A stretch of DNA of 64,000 bases. It comes from Endomicrobiales bacterium. GTDB lineage: Bacteria > Elusimicrobiota > Endomicrobiia > Endomicrobiales > CAWCFT01. A model generated the notes under the pieces. The model had not been told where the DNA came from, searched no databases, and worked only from the letters and a program-made list of their open reading frames with translations. A program made the translations under genes and the position numbers. Each line of letters begins with the position of its first letter. Position 1 is the stretch's first letter. Where the stretch lies: contig CAWCFT010000001.1 of the NCBI GenBank assembly GCA_963794945.1, positions 128,001 through 192,000 of the forward strand. The letters are read 5' to 3'. Shown piece after piece: positions 6,659-18,855 of the stretch.

Positions 6659-7267
6659 TCAGTAACTTCTACTAACGCCGTCTATCGGAAGAAAATACCC
6701 TTTAATATTATTCAGGTTCCTTACACAAATTTGAATATGATTTTTCTCTCTAAAACCGGCATTAGGGTAAAGCAGTCTCCCCTCCCAAAAAGGGCTTCTA
6801 ACGGTATCATAAGGCTTTTCTTTAGATACGTCAATAATGGTGTGCAGTGTCTGTATCACGGCGCAATCCAACTTTCTTCTCAAAGGCACTTCTTCTTCTG
6901 ATTTAGAATTTTCTGGAATTTTTTCACCGCGTTTATTTAAGTCTTCAATTAAAAAATTATAAGTATCTTTAACAGCATCCAAAGCTTTCTGATCAAATAG
7001 ATTTAAACAGCGCCCCAAATCGATGATTGCCCCTATTACCGCAGGGTTATTGATCACTTCCGAACATCTTTCCGGATGGTCTCTCATTTCTTTAGCATAC
7101 TGCAATGCCCTGTGCGGGTCATTTTCCCAAAAGTACATACCGTGGCCGAGCCAATCATAATCATTTTTACTTGGATGCTGGCTTTCTTTTTTCAGCAATA
7201 GTTTGTCCGCTGTTTTCTGGTCACAACCATGAAACCCAAAAACAAAAGATGGTAAAATTGAATACAT
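6659..7267 (-). CDS. Hypothetical protein, ADP-ribosyltransferase-like fold candidate
   Basis: GFHGC, WLGHGMYFW, HIQICVRN motifs; AT-rich. Confidence 0.6.
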   Translation of the reverse strand: MYSILPSFVFGFHGCDQKTADKLLLKKESQHPSKNDYDWLGHGMYFWENDPHRALQYAKEMRDHPERCSEVINNPAVIGAIIDLGRCLNLFDQKALDAVKDTYNFLIEDLNKRGEKIPENSKSEEEVPLRRKLDCAVIQTLHTIIDVSKEKPYDTVRSPFWEGRLLYPNAGFREKNHIQICVRNLNNIKGYFLPIDGVSRSY

Positions 7268-8457: not shown

Positions 8458-8517
8458 TGTGGCCTCCTTTCAGCCCTGGTCCGCCTTCCCCCATCAGAAC
8501 TGTGCCGCAAATATTAT

Positions 8518-9160
8518 GCTTCCAATCCAGCTTCCGTTTTGCTTACATCTGTCTTCGCGAGGCCGCCTCTGGCGGGCGTGGCGATCTTGATGTTCGCCTT
8601 CCTTTCAGCTTCAATTCAAGATTCCAATTTGCTTCCAGTTAAGCTTCATGTTTGCTTCCAATTCAGCTTCCATTCTGCTTCCATCAAGCTTCCCTTAAGC
8701 TTCCTTTTTGCTTCTAGTTTAGCTTCCATTTCGGCTTCTATTTTGCTTCCATTCGTCTTCGCGAGTCCGCCTCTGGCGGGCGTGGCGATCTCGATGTTAG
8801 CCTTCCTTTCAGCTTCCATTCAAGCTTCCATTTTGCTTCCAGTTAAGCTTCATTTTCGCCAACATTCCGCGCATTAAACTCCTTCGCCCAGCAAGTCAAA
8901 TCCGCCGTGGTAGGCAGGTGGTATAAATGTTTGTCAAACTTCCTCTCCATTGATGGGAGAGGATTGAGGTGAGGGTGAGATTGACCAACTTTCAGCTTCC
9001 TATTTGCTTCCAATTAAGCTTCCGTTTTGCTTCCATCTGTCTTCGCGAGTCCGCCTCTGGCGGGCGTGGCGATCACGACGTTAGCCTTCCTTTCAGCTTC
9101 CATTCAAGCTTCCTTTTTGCTTCCAAATCAGCTTCCATTAATGCTTCCCTATCAGCTTCC
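8518..9160. repeat. Array of GCTTC(C) motifs at 11-12 bp spacing with three embedded REP half-elements
   Basis: 28 GCTTC counted; GTCTTCGCGAGKCCGCCTCTGGCGGGCGTGGCGATC at 8551, 8755, 9039. Confidence 0.85.
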
Positions 9161-9666: not shown

Positions 9667-11012
9667 TGATAATATGAAAGCAACCTCCATCTAGTTTTGT
9701 TAAACTTATTGTATCGAGCAATAAGACAAAACGAGGAGGTTGCCATGAATTATGTTGGTGTAGACTTGCACAAAGAGCGTTCTTGGTTTTACGTGACGAA
9801 CGAGCAGGGCAAACGGATTGACAGCCAGAGTATAGCAAATTTGCCAGAAGTGTTGCGATCATATTATAAAACGCTCCCACGACCATTTACACTTGCAGTT
9901 GAAACGACTTACAATTGGTACTATTTCGTTGATCTCGCCGAAGAATATGCTTACAAGGTGTATCTTGCGAATTCGTACGAGCTGAAAGCATTTGCAAAAC
10001 GAAACAAGAAAACAGAACAAGATAGATGCCCGGCTTATAGCCGATGTGCTCCGTAAGGGCTATTTACCTACAGTAGAGCTGCCAAACAAGAAGATACGAG
10101 CTATTAAAGAACTGTTGCATTGCCGGATGAGCATTGTCAGTGAACGAACGCGGAACACAGCACGGTTAAAGTCACTTCTTGATCGCCATGGACAGATGTC
10201 AACGGGTGACTATACTTCAATGAAGCAATTGAACGGTATTGCGGTGAACAAATTATCTGAACCGTGCCGGATTGCCGCAGAAAACTGGATTGAGCAAATA
10301 GGCGCTTTGAATGCGCGTGAAAACCGTATCGGGTGGCAACTACATGCAATAGCCGAAAGTGATCCCGACGCACGGAATCTTGAAAGTATTCCTGGGATCG
10401 GCAGTTTTAGTGCATTGCTTATTAAAAGCGAGATAGGCGATATTAGCCGTTTTACAACATTTAACCGCCTCTGCGCGTACGCAGGCCTTGCACCGAGAAC
10501 ATTCCAGAGCGCCGACAAAGAATATCACGGTTCTTTAAATAAGAATCGGCGTAAACACCTACAGTGGATATTGATTGAGGCAGTTCACCATTTTTCAAAG
10601 AGAGCGTTGAACGAACAGAAAAGTATGAAGCTATAGCCAAACGGAAAGCGCCCAACGTGGCGCGAGTGGCTCTTGCCAGAGATTTATTGAAAATTGTGTA
10701 TCGAGTTTTGAAAGATAAGCGGCCATATTATATACGGACTACGGCGTCCCTCGCGCTCAATGGTGCCTGAAGTGTCCGCCGCAAGGCTGACAGCTTCAAC
10801 AAGTCTGATTAGCGGAGGGGCGTCGCCCGATTCTATCATGCAGTCCGCCAAGTGCAGAGCTGCCAATAGGTGACTGAAGTCCGGATATTTTCGGAGCTTC
10901 TTACGATACAAAGCGGGCGAACGGCCAAAGAACTTGTTTAACAGAACAGATCAGTAGTTAGAAACTACTGCGGAGATACTTTTTGTCACCTTGACTTTTT
11001 CTTTCATAGGTG
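9667..11012 (+). mobile_element. IS110-family (IS1111-type) element, copy 1; transposase 9745-10770 frameshifted
   Basis: Near-identical to 14565-15910 and 43618-44964; ends TG-ATAA-TATGAAAG ... CTTTCATA-GG-TG. Confidence 0.95.
10744..10925 (+). ncRNA. Predicted bridge/seek RNA in IS right non-coding end (also in copies 2 and 3)
   Basis: Internal loop carrying AATGGTGCC and ACAAGTCTG matches insertion flanks; TATCA and ATAGGTGA match circle junction; 3' end uncertain. Confidence 0.8.
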
Positions 11013-11042
11013 ACACCGTTCATCGAATGGTAGTTTGGGGAA

Positions 11043-11124
11043 TCGCAAACTTGGAACAGTCACCTCAGGCAATCGCCGGCCTCTTGACGAGACCCGCCAG
11101 TTGTTTTTGGCGGGCCTGACTCCA
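11043..11124 (+). repeat. Structured ~100-bp repeat, diverged copy
   Basis: Homologous to reverse complement of 15951-16059 and 16938-17046. Confidence 0.85.
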
Positions 11125-11151
11125 CTTAATATTTTACTAACACCAATTTCT

Positions 11152-12258
11152 TTAGATTGCCAATACATTTCTTAAAGCTGAATCGATTTCATCCCAATCT
11201 TTAATCCAGCAAACAGCAACCCCTAAATGGTGAAGACCGCATTCCATAATATCACGCAACCATTTTTCTTTCGGTAAAACATTAACCCACACATGGTATG
11301 CAGGAATTTTAGCGCCTCCTGAAATAACGTCAATGTCATTAATATTATTTTTATGTGTCCAAGCCAACCATTTTCTGATATTTAAATCGCTTAGCGAATG
11401 CCCTATTATCAGCATTCTTGTTGTTTGAGCATAATATAGAAAAGTCGACTGAGTCCAGGAAGACATGTTACCAGCTATATCCAAATAATCTTTCTCTCGA
11501 AATACAAGTTTATCTCTTGAATCTCTTCGATGTTCCTTTAAGGCTACTTTAACGTTAGGCGCAATCGCACCATGACTATAAATGAATGGAATGCTCCCAT
11601 GCCATACATATTGTGACCTAAATACACTTTGATATTTCCTCTTCGGCCTCACGTGTTGCCCTATTTTTGTTTCATGTTCATTAATTGCTAGTACATCTGT
11701 AATTGTATATAAAAGAGTATCTGCATTAAAACTGAGTACCGCTGTTGGGGCTTTGGGTGTATCAACTAAGTCGTTTAATATCCGAGAAAGACTAAAGATT
11801 GTCGTTTGCTTAAATTCTTTTTCCAAAAATACATATAGCTTTTCCATTTGACGTAGTTTTAAATATCTCGGATCACTCAATGCTATAATCAGCTCTTTTG
11901 TTACATTATATGTGGTAGCCTTTTTGAATAGATCATTATAAAGAGCTGACCCAAGAATTGAAATAAACTTTCTCGCATCAGTGCTACTGGAGTCTATAAT
12001 ATTTTCGGCTGCTTGAATATAGGCATCTAGACCCCAGCCCGTATTTACACAAGCTTTTTTAAATTCATCAAATGCTATTTTTGTCTTAAAAGCATCCTGC
12101 AGTACATGCCAAGTCAATTCACTCCAATTAGGAACTAACCCAGTAGAAGTTCCGGCTCCAATGCATAAAGTCCAAGGAACATTGCTTACGCTTCCCCTAT
12201 ATTTAGTTTCCAGTCCAAAGAAGGACTCTTTCAATGGTCGTACACATTTGACAAGCAT
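11152..12258 (-). CDS. SIR2-like (SIR2_2) protein
   Basis: IGAGTS..PNW, SFNADTL, YSHG, IIGHSLSDLNIR. Confidence 0.8.
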   Translation of the reverse strand: MLVKCVRPLKESFFGLETKYRGSVSNVPWTLCIGAGTSTGLVPNWSELTWHVLQDAFKTKIAFDEFKKACVNTGWGLDAYIQAAENIIDSSSTDARKFISILGSALYNDLFKKATTYNVTKELIIALSDPRYLKLRQMEKLYVFLEKEFKQTTIFSLSRILNDLVDTPKAPTAVLSFNADTLLYTITDVLAINEHETKIGQHVRPKRKYQSVFRSQYVWHGSIPFIYSHGAIAPNVKVALKEHRRDSRDKLVFREKDYLDIAGNMSSWTQSTFLYYAQTTRMLIIGHSLSDLNIRKWLAWTHKNNINDIDVISGGAKIPAYHVWVNVLPKEKWLRDIMECGLHHLGVAVCWIKDWDEIDSALRNVLAI

Positions 12259-12318
12259 TGTTCGCTCCTTAAAATAGGAACTTTGACTTTAGTGAAAACG
12301 TTAGCCTGACACCATTTC

Positions 12319-14535
12319 TTATTCTTCTTGCCTGTTATTTTTTTGTATTGTATCTAAAATATTGTGTGTGTGCAACCGCAATTTCATTGCCTCTTCCGCT
12401 GTTAATTCGTCAGAGTGAGCAATTTTATTTCTTATCGATTGAAGCTCAATAAACTTCGAGTAAAATAGTTCCTTACTTGAAAATACTTCTTTAAACACTT
12501 CTTCCCAATTATCTCTCCTCGCAATTATTTTATAGTAATCCGGAAAATCAACTGATATCATTTTTGATTTTTCTTCAGGTATTGCCCATGGATATATATT
12601 TTCTTTTTTACTGTGCCTGTCTTCGGCATTTTCCTTCACATCTGAAGGTATCCTTTCATTCCACCAATTACTACTAATACCATTAAGCTTAGTTTCAACA
12701 AATGTTCTTAAATTGACCTCCAGGTCTTTCAAAATATTATAAGGCTCTGACTTTTGGTAAGCCATTTTCTTTCTCTTCTCAATATCCTTAATATATTCTA
12801 TGGCAAACAACTCATTTGACTTATTAATTGTTTCGATGATCATCAATGCAATGTTTGCTCGCCCAGCTTCATTACTTGTCATTGCACGGTATTCTTTAAT
12901 TTTTGAATAATTATTTAAAAAGAATGCAATAATCGGCTCTTTTATTAAATCTTCTACTTTTCTCTTATCCCATACACCTTTGAAATATTGCAACACCTCA
13001 ACCAAAACTCTTGTGAATATATTGAAACCATTGTTATGAAGAATAAAACCTTTTTTCCACTCATGATATTCCTCCGCAAATGAATCTATGAGGGTAAAAT
13101 ATTCATTAATGACTTTCTCGGGGAAGACAAGAATACTATCGGGAAAAGGAATCGTTTCGCTTACTTCTCCATTTTTTTGGTATAGGTTATACGTTCCCTT
13201 AACAAGCGGATCAATAATCTTTCTGTCATATAAAGTATTGCATATGTTAGCTAATTTTAGGGGATATGCCGATGCTTTGCGTTGTTGGTGTCTAGGAATA
13301 AGAATTTTACCCTTGAAATATCCAGTTTTATTAAGTTCTTTTGCTATTTTGGTTATTGCACCCTGAATAGAATTCGGATCAGTTTGTGAAAGCAAATCCC
13401 ATAACAAATTTGGATCTACAGATTTCTGTTTTTGATTAATATCAATAAAATCTCTAGCTTGTTGTTTTTTTCCAATATCTTGATATGCTGTAACACTAAT
13501 ACAATATTTTAGTTTCTCGGTATTAGCTTGGGTGTAGCCATAAATTCTATGTTGCCCATCGATGATCCAAACGCTACCATATATTTTGGGGATAGAAAGT
13601 ATCCCAAACGCCATATTGGTATCTTGCAGAAGTAATCCAGTATTTTTTGGCTCAAATGTCACTTGCTTTTCAAAACTACAAACCACATTGTTTTTAAAAA
13701 ACCCTCCATTGTCAATGTATTCAGCTATACCAGGCTCTTCTGTTGTTCCAAAAATACGTTTTTCATTAATAAATCTCTGGTAAGCATCTTCATTTCCAGA
13801 TTGAAGCCTGAACACGTAAACTAAATTCAATAGTTTTTCAACTGGTATATAAAAACTAAATATTTCTTGGTCTCCAATTGTTACTTTAAAACTTGGGACT
13901 TTATAATCAGCACTGCCTTCCTCATCTTTAATATACTTCGGTGTACAATTCAATTCTTTAAGAACATAATGAAATGTTAAAGAGCCAATTACTTTATATA
14001 ATCTTTCAAGAACATCAATATATCTACTGCACCACAAATATACATCGTTGACTCGTGCAGTCTCTATATCTTTAGGATCAATGTCAATATCATCAACCAC
14101 AAGAACATATCTTACCTCATTATATTTTGATCCGTATTTCTCAGCAATTGCCTTATTAATCTCTATTTGTTTTCCCTTAAAGATATCAATTTCATTTGCG
14201 ATACTTTTTTTCTTAGGCTGATCAGCACTTTTACATTCGACCACAAGCAACGTTCCATTCTTACCACCAACAGCATCTATTTGATATCTACCAAGCCAAG
14301 AATTATAGCCAGATTCAATATCATCAAAACCCAATATTTCAAGCAGAATTCTTACTCTTTCTTGAAATAATTCCCATTTTTTAAATTTTTTCTCTAAAAT
14401 AATCTTCCCATTATCAGTTTTTTTAATTAGGAAACCAACTTTCTTAAAAGATTCTATTTCATCCTTATTTTCCAACTCAATCTCAACTAATTTATTCTTT
14501 TGAGGACTAGGCACTTTCCATTTACTTTGCTTCAT
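12319..14535 (-). CDS. PD-(D/E)xK nuclease + DGQHR (DndB/ParB-like) + Swt1-like HEPN multidomain protein
   Basis: QIDAVG...VVECKS; YQR...IIDGQHR...FIDIN; WWNERIP...RNKIAH; start MKQSKW behind AAGGAG. Confidence 0.85.
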   Translation of the reverse strand: MKQSKWKVPSPQKNKLVEIELENKDEIESFKKVGFLIKKTDNGKIILEKKFKKWELFQERVRILLEILGFDDIESGYNSWLGRYQIDAVGGKNGTLLVVECKSADQPKKKSIANEIDIFKGKQIEINKAIAEKYGSKYNEVRYVLVVDDIDIDPKDIETARVNDVYLWCSRYIDVLERLYKVIGSLTFHYVLKELNCTPKYIKDEEGSADYKVPSFKVTIGDQEIFSFYIPVEKLLNLVYVFRLQSGNEDAYQRFINEKRIFGTTEEPGIAEYIDNGGFFKNNVVCSFEKQVTFEPKNTGLLLQDTNMAFGILSIPKIYGSVWIIDGQHRIYGYTQANTEKLKYCISVTAYQDIGKKQQARDFIDINQKQKSVDPNLLWDLLSQTDPNSIQGAITKIAKELNKTGYFKGKILIPRHQQRKASAYPLKLANICNTLYDRKIIDPLVKGTYNLYQKNGEVSETIPFPDSILVFPEKVINEYFTLIDSFAEEYHEWKKGFILHNNGFNIFTRVLVEVLQYFKGVWDKRKVEDLIKEPIIAFFLNNYSKIKEYRAMTSNEAGRANIALMIIETINKSNELFAIEYIKDIEKRKKMAYQKSEPYNILKDLEVNLRTFVETKLNGISSNWWNERIPSDVKENAEDRHSKKENIYPWAIPEEKSKMISVDFPDYYKIIARRDNWEEVFKEVFSSKELFYSKFIELQSIRNKIAHSDELTAEEAMKLRLHTHNILDTIQKNNRQEE

Positions 14536-14564: not shown

Positions 14565-15910
14565 CACCTATGAAAGAAAAAGTCAAGGTGACAAAAAGTA
14601 TCTCCGCAGTAGTTTCTAACTACTGATCTGTTCTGTTAAACAAGTTCTTTGGCCGTTCGCCCGCTTTGTATCGTAAGAAGCTCCGAAAATATCCGGACTT
14701 CAGTCACCTATTGGCAGCTCTGCACTTGGCGGACTGCATGATAGAATCGGGCGACGCCCCTCCGCTAATCAGACTTGTTGAAGCTGTCAGCCTTGCGGCG
14801 GACACTTCAGGCACCATTGAGCGCGAGGGACGCCGTAGTCCGTATATAATATGGCCGCTTATCTTTCAAAACTCGATACACAATTTTCAATAAATCTCTG
14901 GCAAGAGCCACTCGCGCCACGTTGGGCGCTTTCCGTTTGGCTATAGCTTCATACTTTTCTGTTCGTTCAACGCTGCTCTTTGAAAAATGGTGAACTGCCT
15001 CAATCAATATCCACTGTAGGTGTTTACGCCGATTCTTATTTAAAGAACCGTGATATTCTTTGTCGGCGCTCTGGAATGTTCTCGGTGCAAGGCCTGCGTA
15101 CGCGCAGAGGCGGTTAAATGTTGTAAAACGGCTAATATCGCCTATCTCGCTTTTAATAAGCAATGCACTAAAACTGCCGATCCCAGGAATACTTTCAAGA
15201 TTCCGTGCGTCGGGATCACTTTCGGCTATTGCATGTAGTTGCCACCCGATACGGTTTTCACGCGCATTCAAAGCGCCTATTTGCTCAATCCAGTTTTCTG
15301 CGGCAATCCGGCACGGTTCAGATAATTTGTTCACCGCAATACCGTTCAATTGCTTCATTGAAGTATAGTCACCCGTTGACATCTGTCCATGGCGATCAAG
15401 AAGTGACTTTAACCGTGCTGTGTTCCGCGTTCGTTCACTGACAATGCTCATCCGGCAATGCAACAGTTCTTTAATAGCTCGTATCTTCTTGTCTGGCAGC
15501 TCTACTGTAGGTAAATAGCCCTTACGGAGCACATCGGCTATAAGCCGGGCATCTATCTTGTCTGTTTTCTTGTTTCGTTTTGCAAATGCTTTCAGCTCGT
15601 ACGAATTCGCAAGATACACCTTGTAAGCATATTCTTCGGCGAGATCAACGAAATAGTACCAATTGTAAGTCGTTTCAACTGCAAGTGTAAATGGTCGTGG
15701 GAGCGTTTTATAATATGATCGCAACACTTCTGGCAAATTTGCTATACTCTGGCTGTCAATCCGTTTGCCCTGCTCGTTCGTCACGTAAAACCAAGAACGC
15801 TCTTTGTGCAAGTCTACACCAACATAATTCATGGCAACCTCCTCGTTTTGTCTTATTGCTCGATACAATAAGTTTAACAAAACTAGATGGAGGTTGCTTT
15901 CATATTATCA
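14565..15910 (-). mobile_element. IS110-family (IS1111-type) element, copy 2 (intact)
   Basis: 1346 bp between TG cores; same ends as copies 1 and 3. Confidence 0.95.
14807..15832 (-). CDS. IS110 DEDD transposase/recombinase
   Basis: GVDLHK, AVET, KTDKIDA, SIPGIG, AYAGLAPRTFQSA; GGAGG RBS before MNYVG. Confidence 0.97.
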   Translation of the reverse strand: MNYVGVDLHKERSWFYVTNEQGKRIDSQSIANLPEVLRSYYKTLPRPFTLAVETTYNWYYFVDLAEEYAYKVYLANSYELKAFAKRNKKTDKIDARLIADVLRKGYLPTVELPDKKIRAIKELLHCRMSIVSERTRNTARLKSLLDRHGQMSTGDYTSMKQLNGIAVNKLSEPCRIAAENWIEQIGALNARENRIGWQLHAIAESDPDARNLESIPGIGSFSALLIKSEIGDISRFTTFNRLCAYAGLAPRTFQSADKEYHGSLNKNRRKHLQWILIEAVHHFSKSSVERTEKYEAIAKRKAPNVARVALARDLLKIVYRVLKDKRPYYIRTTASLALNGA

Positions 15911-15950
15911 GGCTTCACTAATTACACTAACTCTCTGTCAACCTTCAAAA

Positions 15951-16059
15951 ATGGTGTCAGGCCCGCCAAAGATAACCGGTGGATCTCGCCAAGAGGACGG
16001 CGGCTGCTTGAGGCAACTGTTCCAAGTCTGCGACTCCGACTTGACTTATTGTACTTATC
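15951..16059 (-). repeat. Structured 109-bp repeat
   Basis: Direct repeat of 16938-17046; the two bracket the KilA-N gene. Confidence 0.9.
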
Positions 16060-16083: not shown

Positions 16084-16899
16084 TTATTTCAGACTTTTAA
16101 TCGAATTACTGGAAAGAAGCGAACGCATTTGTGCAATAGCGATTTCGTTCAGCTTTATTATTCTTTCCGATTGTTTCATCCCCTGGCGTATCAGCACAGA
16201 GTTTATGCTTTCAAGGTTGCTGAGCACTACTAGTTGTTCGAGAGTTGCACAATCGCGGATATTGCCCTCTTTGCCCGGATTTTCCGAACGCCACGCAGCC
16301 GCGGTTTTACCGAAAAGAGCGACATTAAGCAGGTCAGCTTCTGAGGCGTATATATTATTTACTTGTTGTTAGCTCAATTCTTTCGGCATAAGATTTTCTT
16401 TTATCGCGTCCGTATGAATGGTATAATTAATTTTGGCAAGAGTGCGTTGAAGGTTCCAACCAAGTTTTTTCGAGGATATTTCTTCGTCTTTTAAACGCTG
16501 AAATTCTTTTATCAGATATAGTTTGAATTCCACTGAAACCCAGGAAGCAAACTCAAAGGCTATATCTTTATGGGCGTACGTGCCCCCATACCTTCCCGGT
16601 TTTGAAATAAGGCCTCGCGCTCCGGTTTGTTCTATCCACTGCTTTGCGGTAAGAACAAAACTGTTGATCCCTGCCTGTTTTCTAAACCCCTCGAATTCGG
16701 TGGGTTTAAAAAGCGGGTTGTTAAGCTGTTCCCATATGCCGAGAAATTCTATTGTATTGCGGTTTCTAAGCCAATTCTGGATTATATAGTCTGTTCTGGC
16801 AGGATCTTTATAACGCGCTATATCTGTAATACATATATAATCATCCCGTTCTTTTGAGTAGAAAGACACAACAGTGTCCAATACTTTAATGTGGCTCAT
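16084..16899 (-). pseudogene. KilA-N domain DNA-binding protein with in-frame TAA at 16369-16371
   Basis: DYICITDIA, GRYGGTYAHKDIAFEFASW; frame continues after stop as YASEADLLNVALFG...GNIRD. Confidence 0.85.
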
Positions 16900-16937
16900 T
16901 TCAATTCTCCTTTTATGAGCTAAATTCTCCTCAATAA

Positions 16938-17046
16938 ATGGTGTCAGGCCCGCCAAAGATAACCGGCGTACCTCGCCAAGAGGCTGGCGGCTGCCTGAGG
17001 CGACTGTTCCAAGTCTGCGACTTCGACTTGACTTATTGTACTTATC
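16938..17046 (-). repeat. Structured 109-bp repeat
   Basis: See 15951-16059. Confidence 0.9.
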
Positions 17047-17777: not shown

Positions 17778-17791
17778 TCTTGTCTCCGATT

Positions 17792-17821
17792 AACCGTTAC
17801 AACCGCGTAGGTTGCAACGGT
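17792..17821. repeat. REP palindrome flanking RAYT
   Basis: AACCGTTACAACC-GCGTA-GGTTGCAACGGT. Confidence 0.85.
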
Positions 17822-18477
17822 CATTCCAACAACAAATCTTTTATTTTATGTAATTCCTGCTGATAAGATATTCTGTCTTCCACAAAGTTTTTATATTCAC
17901 CTGAGCTGATCGTGATAAGGTCGCGATGACTGGTTAAATTATTTCTATCGTAAATTCCGCTTAGGTATTCCTTGTAAGATGAGGCCTTCCATGATTCGGG
18001 TTTATCGGTTAATTCGGATGTAACAGGATTTAGATGGACGTATCTTGTTAAATGGAGTAAATATTCGTTTGTGTTGACCAGCACGCTTTTGAACCTGCTC
18101 TCCCATAGAGGCCCTTTTCTTTCGTGCTTTGTATTAAAATATCTAGTATAGCTGTTTAAAACGTTGTTCATGAAAACTGATATTCCTTTTCCAGTGTTCT
18201 GCTTCAACACAAAATGCACATGAGTCGGCATAATACAGTACGCGATTATTTGCACCAGATCATTTTTCGTATCATGGAATCCCATGAAATCAAGTTTATT
18301 TTCTCTTAAAAGCTTGTCGTATCTTGAAAAACTGATATCCGGTTTTTCCTTTTGATAGAACTTTACAGCTTCAAGCATCCTGAAATAATCCGTCTCCGTA
18401 TTAAATATAATGTACCGGGCTATACTTCTCGAAAACACGTGGTATACTTGTCCCTCAACTAACAAATCCTTTCTCAT
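17821..18477 (-). CDS. REP-associated tyrosine transposase (RAYT, Y1/HUH)
   Basis: YHVFSR, AYCIMPTHVH, GPLWESRF, RYVHLNPV, SSY. Confidence 0.92.
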   Translation of the reverse strand: MRKDLLVEGQVYHVFSRSIARYIIFNTETDYFRMLEAVKFYQKEKPDISFSRYDKLLRENKLDFMGFHDTKNDLVQIIAYCIMPTHVHFVLKQNTGKGISVFMNNVLNSYTRYFNTKHERKGPLWESRFKSVLVNTNEYLLHLTRYVHLNPVTSELTDKPESWKASSYKEYLSGIYDRNNLTSHRDLITISSGEYKNFVEDRISYQQELHKIKDLLLE

Positions 18478-18490
18478 CCTGATCCCTTTT

Positions 18491-18521
18491 AACCGTTACA
18501 ACCTACGCGGTTGTAACGGTT
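18491..18521. repeat. REP palindrome flanking RAYT (inverted copy)
   Basis: AACCGTTACAACC-TACGC-GGTTGTAACGGTT. Confidence 0.85.
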
Positions 18522-18855
18522 ACTTCTCAAGTTTAAGAATGTTGTAAAGGCCGTCACGCAGTTGTTCTTTGTCTACGGCGGTGCCGAACCTTATGCCGGC
18601 AACGTAGTAGCCGTTCCTGGAGGACACGTGCATTACCTTTCCCAGGGCGTGCTCAAACACGTGGTCGGTTCCCAGCGTGAAGCTCAAGTGGATCAATTCA
18701 TTGTCCCTTACCGGAAAGCGCGTTTCTATCTGCAGGCCGCCCAGGCTTACGTCGTAAATAACTCCCCATCCCTCGAAATTTTCCCTCTCGTAGAAGCGCA
18801 TAAGCACTGGGATGGAAGCGCTGAACCGGATATTGCTGCGGTATTCTTTTGTCAT
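18520..18855 (-). CDS. PilZ domain protein
   Basis: RSNIR (RxxxR), DVSLGG (DxSxxG). Confidence 0.9.
   Translation of the reverse strand: MTKEYRSNIRFSASIPVLMRFYERENFEGWGVIYDVSLGGLQIETRFPVRDNELIHLSFTLGTDHVFEHALGKVMHVSSRNGYYVAGIRFGTAVDKEQLRDGLYNILKLEK

Follow-up and report, generated by a model that had tools for sequence, protein, structure and literature searches.

The DNA analyzed here is a stretch of 64,000 nucleotides from an Endomicrobiales bacterium (assembly GCA_963794945.1, contig CAWCFT010000001.1, positions 128,001 to 192,000), which we call the window and whose own numbering is used throughout. The locus of interest consists of two neighboring genes: gene A, which encodes a nuclease-DGQHR(ParB)-helical-HEPN protein, and gene B, which encodes a single-domain SIR2 protein (Table 1). 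A first-pass annotation had described them as two co-oriented, AT-rich genes separated by 60 bp, and this was confirmed by the open reading frames (ORFs) and by the base composition, with a G+C content of 31.9% for gene A, 36.5% for gene B and 33.5% for the pair, versus 46.5% for the genome (85.9% complete). An AAGGAG ribosome site precedes both genes, in the case of gene A at the ATG that yields the product of 738 residues; promoter-like sites were close to chance (20 observed, 14.5 expected). The segment 12237-12387 is spanned, with zero differences, by one contig of an independent sequencing run, and therefore the junction between both genes is real DNA and not an assembly artifact. Furthermore, the pair is enclosed by two inverted copies of an IS110 insertion sequence (IS), a feature absent from that annotation. 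We consider it probable that A and B are two independent, horizontally acquired genes with predicted defense functions, which became joined at the end-repeat of a transposase. The observations behind this reading are the domains, the conserved catalytic residues, the folds, the layout of the repeats and IS110 copies, and the lack of co-occurrence of both genes in the loci examined.

Table 1. Genes, domains and repeated elements of the locus (positions in the window)
Feature	Position	Strand	Remarks
Gene B	11152-12258	minus	ORF of 368 aa; single-domain defense-type SIR2
Gene A	12319-14535	minus	ORF of 738 aa; nuclease-DGQHR(ParB)-helical-HEPN protein
PD-(D/E)xK nuclease domain of gene A	13936-14388	minus	Residues ~50-200; E59, D87, E100, K102
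DGQHR/ParB-like domain of gene A	13285-13896	minus	Residues ~214-417; QR 253-254, DGQHR 326-330, FxxxN 363-367
Swt1-type HEPN domain of gene A	12322-12768	minus	Residues ~590-738; RNKIAH at 702-707
Intergenic transposase end-repeat motif GCCTGACACC	12304-12313	minus	5 bp past the gene A stop; empty IS110-type target
89-bp repeat	11039-11127	minus	Begins with a motif variant (11114-11123); downstream of gene B
IS110 copy, frameshifted transposase	9667-11012	plus	Inserted in the same motif family
IS110 copy, intact transposase (14807-15832)	14565-15910	minus	In a motif 25 bp upstream of the gene A start
118-bp repeat	15942-16059	plus	Carries the motif at 15953-15962
Second 118-bp repeat	16929-17046	plus	Carries the motif at 16940-16949

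Gene A had been proposed to join a PD-(D/E)xK nuclease, a DGQHR core and an HEPN domain with an RxxxxH motif, and profiles, invariant residues and folds were all in agreement with this. Its product scored 103.9 bits against TIGR03187 (cut-off, 58.85), which makes it a member of the DGQHR domain family, 48.5 bits against the Pfam DndB profile PF14072 and 43.8 bits against PF18731 (HEPN_Swt1; cut-off, 27.5). The three motifs that define the DGQHR domain, namely a QR pair, the DGQHR pentapeptide and FxxxN (PMC4619093), were all present. In addition, the nuclease residues Q85, D87, E100 and K102, the DGQHR-domain residues R254, D326-R330, F363 and N367, and the HEPN residues R702 and H707 were invariant in the 26 aligned homologues. 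In the AlphaFold model of gene A (predicted local distance difference test, pLDDT, 83.4; predicted template modeling score, pTM, 0.58), comparison by VIA-align related the nuclease fold to 1y88 (Z 13.1, root-mean-square deviation (rmsd) 3.0, 115 residues aligned), to Can2 (Z 10.3) and to 2vld (Z 9.8). Since Pfam gave no match for this domain, its assignment as PD-(D/E)xK rests on motif and fold. Residues 590-738 matched the C-terminal domain of Swt1 (4pqz, Z 8.0), and this HEPN fold, with its intact RxxxxH, places the region among the Swt1-like HEPN RNases. A protein search retrieved 123 matches, among which the relatives of near full length show 49-60% or 30-35% identity. A sequence search of the PDB returned nothing, Foldseek gave no match to the full model at E <0.001, and the leads that an Atlas search gave for the helical middle domain were all below 0.9.

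Proteins built from the same domain types were already recognized in 2013, when the ParB-like DUF262/DGQHR core was reported to be often fused to HNH, PD-(D/E)xK and HEPN domains and to be tied to DNA modification systems (Makarova 2013, PMC3632139), and a fusion of a Swt1-like HEPN to ParB was listed as "ParB (Saro_3948)" (Anantharaman 2013, PMC3710099). The proposal made for those fusions, immunity linked to restriction-modification (R-M) with a suicidal RNase as a backup, is also the one that we make for gene A. However, the consulted parts of both papers contain neither a description of the three-domain family nor an experiment, and the clade of the window gene differs in having no abutting modifier. 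A gene A homologue with DndB and Swt1-HEPN matches is located on plasmid pNL1 of Novosphingobium aromaticivorans and is probably Saro_3948 itself. In the open-access literature we found no experimental study of the nuclease-DGQHR-HEPN family, which the supplements of PMC13069673, PMC10853773 and bioRxiv 2025.01.08.631966 may list; the main texts of two recent discovery papers contained no DndB, ParB or HEPN.

Among characterized systems, SspE, GmrSD/BrxU and the Menshen protein NsnA served as a model for gene A, since in these a helical domain comes after a nucleotide-binding core of the ParB fold, and this core is coupled to a nuclease (PMC12065111, PMC4619093). Unlike them, gene A has DGQHR instead of DGQQR, an N-terminal PD-(D/E)xK instead of a C-terminal HNH domain, and an extra HEPN domain; the Pfam scan of gene A detected neither DUF262 nor DUF1524, which sets it apart from the GmrSD/SspE proteins. 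With DndB and DpdB it shares the DGQHR domain, to which it adds two nuclease domains. It belongs to neither of them, as it scored 44.7 bits against TIGR04172 (cut-off, 450), with no dndC or dndD found in the genome, and 49.7 bits against NF041060 (cut-off, 300).

The SIR2_2 motifs that had been noticed in gene B also held: its score of 23.8 bits against SIR2_2 is slightly below the cut-off of 24.5, but 12 of 12 members of its family matched the profile, and its fold resembles those of KomC and ThsA. The protein contains GAGxS (residues 34-38), N178, H229-G230 and GxSxxDxN (286-293), motifs that the work on ThsA and SPARSA links to catalysis. Its model (pLDDT 82.9) matched 9v0g, a chain of the KomBC complex (Z 19.1, rmsd 3.6, 266 aligned), ThsA (Z 18.6, rmsd 3.5, 255 aligned) and KomC (Z 18.5), whereas the classical sirtuins reached Z values of at most 10.9, far below those scores. 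The fold and the four motifs identify gene B as a SIR2 protein of the defense type. The SIR2 fold covers residues 8-368, and no obvious sensor domain was recognized. By sequence, a search of the PDB found KomC at E 0.0015.

Gene B thus shares fold and motifs with KomC (Kongming), ThsA (Thoeris), Sir2-HerA, DSR2 and SPARSA. However, its identity to the defense SIR2 NADases is 12-17%, it is about 90 residues longer than KomC, and it has no SLOG, Macro or pAgo domain. A Thoeris system is not found here, as gene B is SIR2 fold over its whole extent, with no SLOG or Macro domain, and no ThsB TIR gene adjoins it; likewise, in the flanks, to which the search was confined, no komA-komB, herA or pAgo gene of the Kongming, Sir2-HerA or SPARSA systems was found beside it. 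In a scan with the profiles of PADLOC 2.0.0, no named or candidate system gave a full-length match to A or B; gene A had partial matches to PDC-M34B and DpdB, and gene B had none at E 0.1, with weak ThsA matches in 4 of 8 of its relatives. The family of gene B comprises 188 clusters at E 1e-30. Among its best 150 matches, 115 are of 330-400 aa and all are of 476 aa or less, and therefore none is a fusion to gene A; no fused long form of gene B was found either, which is weak evidence. Members from Vibrio vulnificus are located on contigs of 0.8-6.5 kb, sizes that would fit repeat-bounded cassettes.

Another aspect to consider is whether A and B travel together, since the first-pass annotation had viewed the pair as a candidate anti-phage system with DNase, RNase and NADase outputs and had set co-occurrence beforehand as a test that could refute it. 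We assembled 82 gene A family loci from genomes and metagenomes, 53 of them with at least 1.2 kb downstream, a length sufficient to reveal gene B, and a further 49 DGQHR loci (43 viral, mostly short DGQHR-only matches, 4 genomic and 2 plasmid), for a total of 131. Profiles A2, A3 and A4 of the gene B family gave 0 matches in these 131 loci; the gene B product of the window, used as a positive control, was recovered by A3 and A4 at E values no higher than 1e-83. A generic scan of the DGQHR loci for SIR2 motifs was equally empty, and A2 had no match in the two genomes, both incomplete, that carry the nearest homologues of gene A. From the side of gene B, repeated viral scans with its family profiles returned only the same 2 records, one of them rated 100% complete, and gene A was present in neither. 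Searches for the gene B family were negative in 400 genomes of the host phylum, in 301 genomes around genome G402 (a search run without a positive control) and in phages, and in plasmids they gave nothing apart from one weak partial match.

A two-gene system was therefore rejected, its partners never having been found together in the loci examined, and although the SIR2 side is weakly sampled, the association of A and B looks incidental. The idea that they are one system, in which a DGQHR sensor would trigger DNase, RNase and NADase outputs, seems to us highly improbable. Its attraction lies in the adjacency, shared orientation and low G+C of both genes and in a gene B with no obvious sensor domain, when SIR2 effectors often rely on a sensor partner; it has to face both the absence of the pair elsewhere and the mobile-element repeat that stands between the genes. 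What stands of the anti-phage proposal is a likely defense role for each gene separately, and the better-supported part of the earlier description is that they may be independent cassettes, since the intergenic GCCTGACACC belongs to a family of transposase end-repeats.

Outward-pointing copies of this motif enclose gene A, one lying 25 bp ahead of the start codon and the other 5 bp past the stop codon. The genome contains 17 occurrences of the 10-mer, for an expectation of 6.6, and 8 of the form preceded by T, for an expectation of 1.5. Each of the 5 IS110 copies that the genome carries is inserted in a member of this motif family, and a core of 2 bases was deduced from the IS ends. The assignment to IS110 derives from the DEDD and Transposase_20 domains of the transposase, which scored 221.8 bits on NF033542, and from the site-specific target. 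The two copies that flank the pair are 99.7% identical and inverted, and a composite transposon was considered and set aside; since each copy occupies its own copy of the target, two independent insertions suffice. The transposase gene of the left copy (9697-10636) is split by frameshifts, and that of the copy on contig C2 apparently too, by decay or assembly error. It should also be mentioned that flipping the segment 11021-14556 between the IS110 copies would make the repeats at 11039, 15942 and 16929 all direct, and a past inversion is possible; the contigs of the sequencing run showed no joints, their coverage being sparse for empty sites or an inversion.

The repeat family likely has its source in an element on contig C15, where a Y1 transposase of 294 aa (C15:88209-89191; L094:3213-4189) lies within inward-pointing copies of the repeat. 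Once the IS is deleted in silico from the site upstream of gene A, that site agrees with the end repeat of this element at 31 of 35 bases, and the left outer site does so at 23. Outward-pointing repeats likewise bracket other cargo on contigs C2 and C11. A lone copy is also present beside a Type II R-M locus on C5, and another beside an ATPase pair on C2. The locus on C5 (C5:277-4612, L091) contains an AAA ATPase, a Type II nuclease, a C5 methyltransferase and a further ORF, presumably Vsr-like, beside one repeat copy. In the set L089:2041-6714, L090:1935-5162 and L093:3020-6261, outward repeats surround a two-gene block and a split gene that we assume to be CheB/CheR-like, and an IS-filled repeat copy follows a PDC-M38/AbiLi-like ATPase pair. 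In the window itself, a KilA-N gene (16369-16896) is located between the two 118-bp repeats; it matches PDC-S22 with 297 bits over positions 6-178 of 281 and appears to be truncated. A second Y1 gene, RAYT-like (17821-18477), lies at 17790-18522 within 31-bp palindromic inverted repeats of another family.

Y1 genes with terminal repeats have been named TIRtrons (Di Nocera 2013, PMC3733652) and assigned to subclass 2.1 (Quentin 2018, 10.1101/279083). The C15 gene, flanked by inverted repeats of this family, is of this TIRtron/TIRYT kind and its repeats are TIRtron end-repeats. However, the motif here is GGTGTCAG, versus the published GGGGWSAS, and the outward orientation of the repeats around cargo genes is a layout not described for TIRtrons or TIRYT in the consulted parts of those two papers. 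This layout raises the hypothesis that the Y1 enzyme captures cargo. In its widest form, the island would be a gene-capture array of the Y1 (TIRYT) transposase, with single defense genes inserted one by one between end repeats; gene A would be a methylase-free lone sensor of foreign DNA, gene B would be the founder of a family of SIR2 NADases that act without partners, and the RNA-guided IS110 would home to the repeats and could repackage the block. We regard this broader scenario as unlikely. Quite unlikely, too, is that A and B have no anti-phage role here and are selfish toxin-like, anti-plasmid or idle cargo brought by Y1/IS110 activity. The bracketing of non-defense cargo by the same repeat on C2 and C11 speaks for this, as does the partial KilA-N match, which implies that the island holds decayed pieces; yet neither ORF is disrupted, no catalytic motif is missing, and relatives of gene A adjoin R-M genes.

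Those relatives were examined for their usual partners. Within 400 bp of the gene, 29 of 82 family loci have a DNA methyltransferase, D12/Dam-like in 18 cases, N6/N4 in 4, C5 in 4 and MT-A70 or EcoRI-type in 3, and a radical SAM gene is found in 10 (labels were given from clusters and from Pfam matches of their representatives). One or the other abuts gene A in 39 of the 82 loci, and in 22 of the 36 in which both flanks reach at least 1.2 kb. These counts are not independent, because partners follow clades in the FastTree tree of the family (81 rows; locus proteins of <600 aa left out). The R-M genes adjoining relatives include DpnI, AlwI, TdeIII and Mrr. The gene A of the window falls in a clade of 17 rows (support 100) whose 8 loci, several with short flanks, have no abutting modifier gene; neighbors in this clade are housekeeping genes (L002), DpnI (L008) and an AlwI-type nuclease (L009). 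At the window locus the neighbors of gene A are SIR2 and IS110, and a Type II-like R-M pairing was not found. The first-pass annotation had noted no dndCDE or methyltransferase gene in the window. The genome, 85.9% complete, has no match to DndC or DndD (profiles TIGR03185 and TIGR03183), nor any of the D12/Dam type, and the N6/N4, N6 and C5 methyltransferases found in it are on other contigs.

These data bear on a further explanation, doubtful in our view, in which gene A would be a restriction subunit orphaned when a methyltransferase-coupled system lost its modifier in transfer; it would now either borrow a methylation mark of the host or be silenced or latent, with gene B as an unrelated passenger. 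The frequent abutting methyltransferases of the relatives and the methyltransferases on other contigs agree with it, and the IS110 copy 25 bp upstream of the gene A start may separate the gene from its promoter. However, the 0 of 8 loci with an abutting methyltransferase in the clade of the window, short as several flanks are, suggest a stable solitary state rather than a single loss, and the genome offers no D12/Dam-type match.

Elsewhere, a search of 400 genomes of the host phylum gave the gene A family in 2, both times as a protein of 515 aa that ends before the HEPN region (L087:1054-3223 and L088:1057-3155), with a Type II nuclease gene after it. It was present in 0 of 400 other genomes in the class of G402 and in 2 of 400 other genomes in the phylum of G401. 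At L144:1444-4097, a closer relative of gene A is directly adjoined downstream by an ORF that we take to be Vsr-like, which hints at a C5 methyltransferase lost or nearby. In Novosphingobium and Agrobacterium/Rhizobium, plasmid loci of the family encode, besides the nuclease-DGQHR-HEPN protein, another DGQHR protein, a radical SAM enzyme and an ATPase (L097:3854-9482, L098:3890-10034), and this module is a candidate for a new kind of DNA modification system.

Several observations weigh against the reading of A and B as independent defense genes joined at an end-repeat. The intergenic motif matches the C15 repeat at just 18 of 35 bases, and no enrichment of the motif was seen next to homologous genes (2 of 80 upstream, 0 of 74 downstream); because homologous loci do not carry it, it is a trait of this genome and says nothing about the way in which the family spreads. 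As both genes are co-oriented and 60 bp apart, and a terminator scan of the gap saw none, they may be co-transcribed. The context of the gene B family comes from 2 viral records only, so a conserved partner other than A may exist. Closely related gene A loci are also few (L001-L003 only, 56-57% identity), and L003 stops 18 bp past the gene. Regarding function, 21 of 70 full-length relatives of gene A have no clear RxxxxH, and residues 222-371 matched the ParB-like PadC with a weak score (Z 6.2). The Type IV-like trigger that is most likely for the solitary clade has missing partners as its sole ground, and the likely defense role of each gene is a prediction from sequence and fold.

Two further features of the window should be mentioned. 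An AT-rich ORF of 202 aa at 6659-7267 has weak matches to PD-T4-9_A (E 1e-5) and PARP (E 0.06) and is a possible ADP-ribosyltransferase-like defense gene. At 8517-9160 there are three imperfect 138-bp repeats with an internal periodicity of 11-12 bp, pieces of which were found in many metagenome contigs.

Returning to two independent genes as the favored explanation, we predict that gene A encodes a restriction-like enzyme of a single protein, in which the DGQHR core of the ParB type likely gates both a DNase and, as a backup, an HEPN RNase; for gene B we predict a separate SIR2 effector that destroys NAD+. Gene A would dimerize, and its DGQHR domain, together with the helical region that follows, would bind nucleotide and read DNA in the way of DUF262 in SspE and GmrSD, by analogy with the sensing ParB-fold core of those proteins (PMC12065111) and with the proposals for sensing by DndB (PMC10853773). 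The PD-(D/E)xK domain would then nick or cut foreign DNA; if the DNase failed or the enzyme was inhibited, cleavage of host or phage RNA by the HEPN dimer would halt the infected cell, an order of events that we infer from PMC3710099. Where a relative has a methyltransferase or radical SAM gene next to it, the product of that gene would serve to mark self DNA. Because the clade of the window has no abutting modifier, its gene A would most likely read modified or otherwise foreign DNA directly, in a Type IV manner. Gene B would oligomerize on a phage cue and deplete NAD+ as ThsA and KomC do, with no need of gene A. Catalysis by HEPN dimers and depletion of NAD+ by SIR2 proteins are both established.

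The domains from which both genes are built are known from defense. The family of gene A is widespread and couples nucleotide sensing of the ParB type to a DNase and an RNase; its partner varies, being a Dam-like, N4/N6, C5 or MT-A70 methylase in some members and a radical SAM enzyme in others. The solitary gene A offers the simplest route to what the DGQHR domain senses. Gene B, in turn, represents a uniform family of SIR2 proteins of 350-370 aa with no known trigger.

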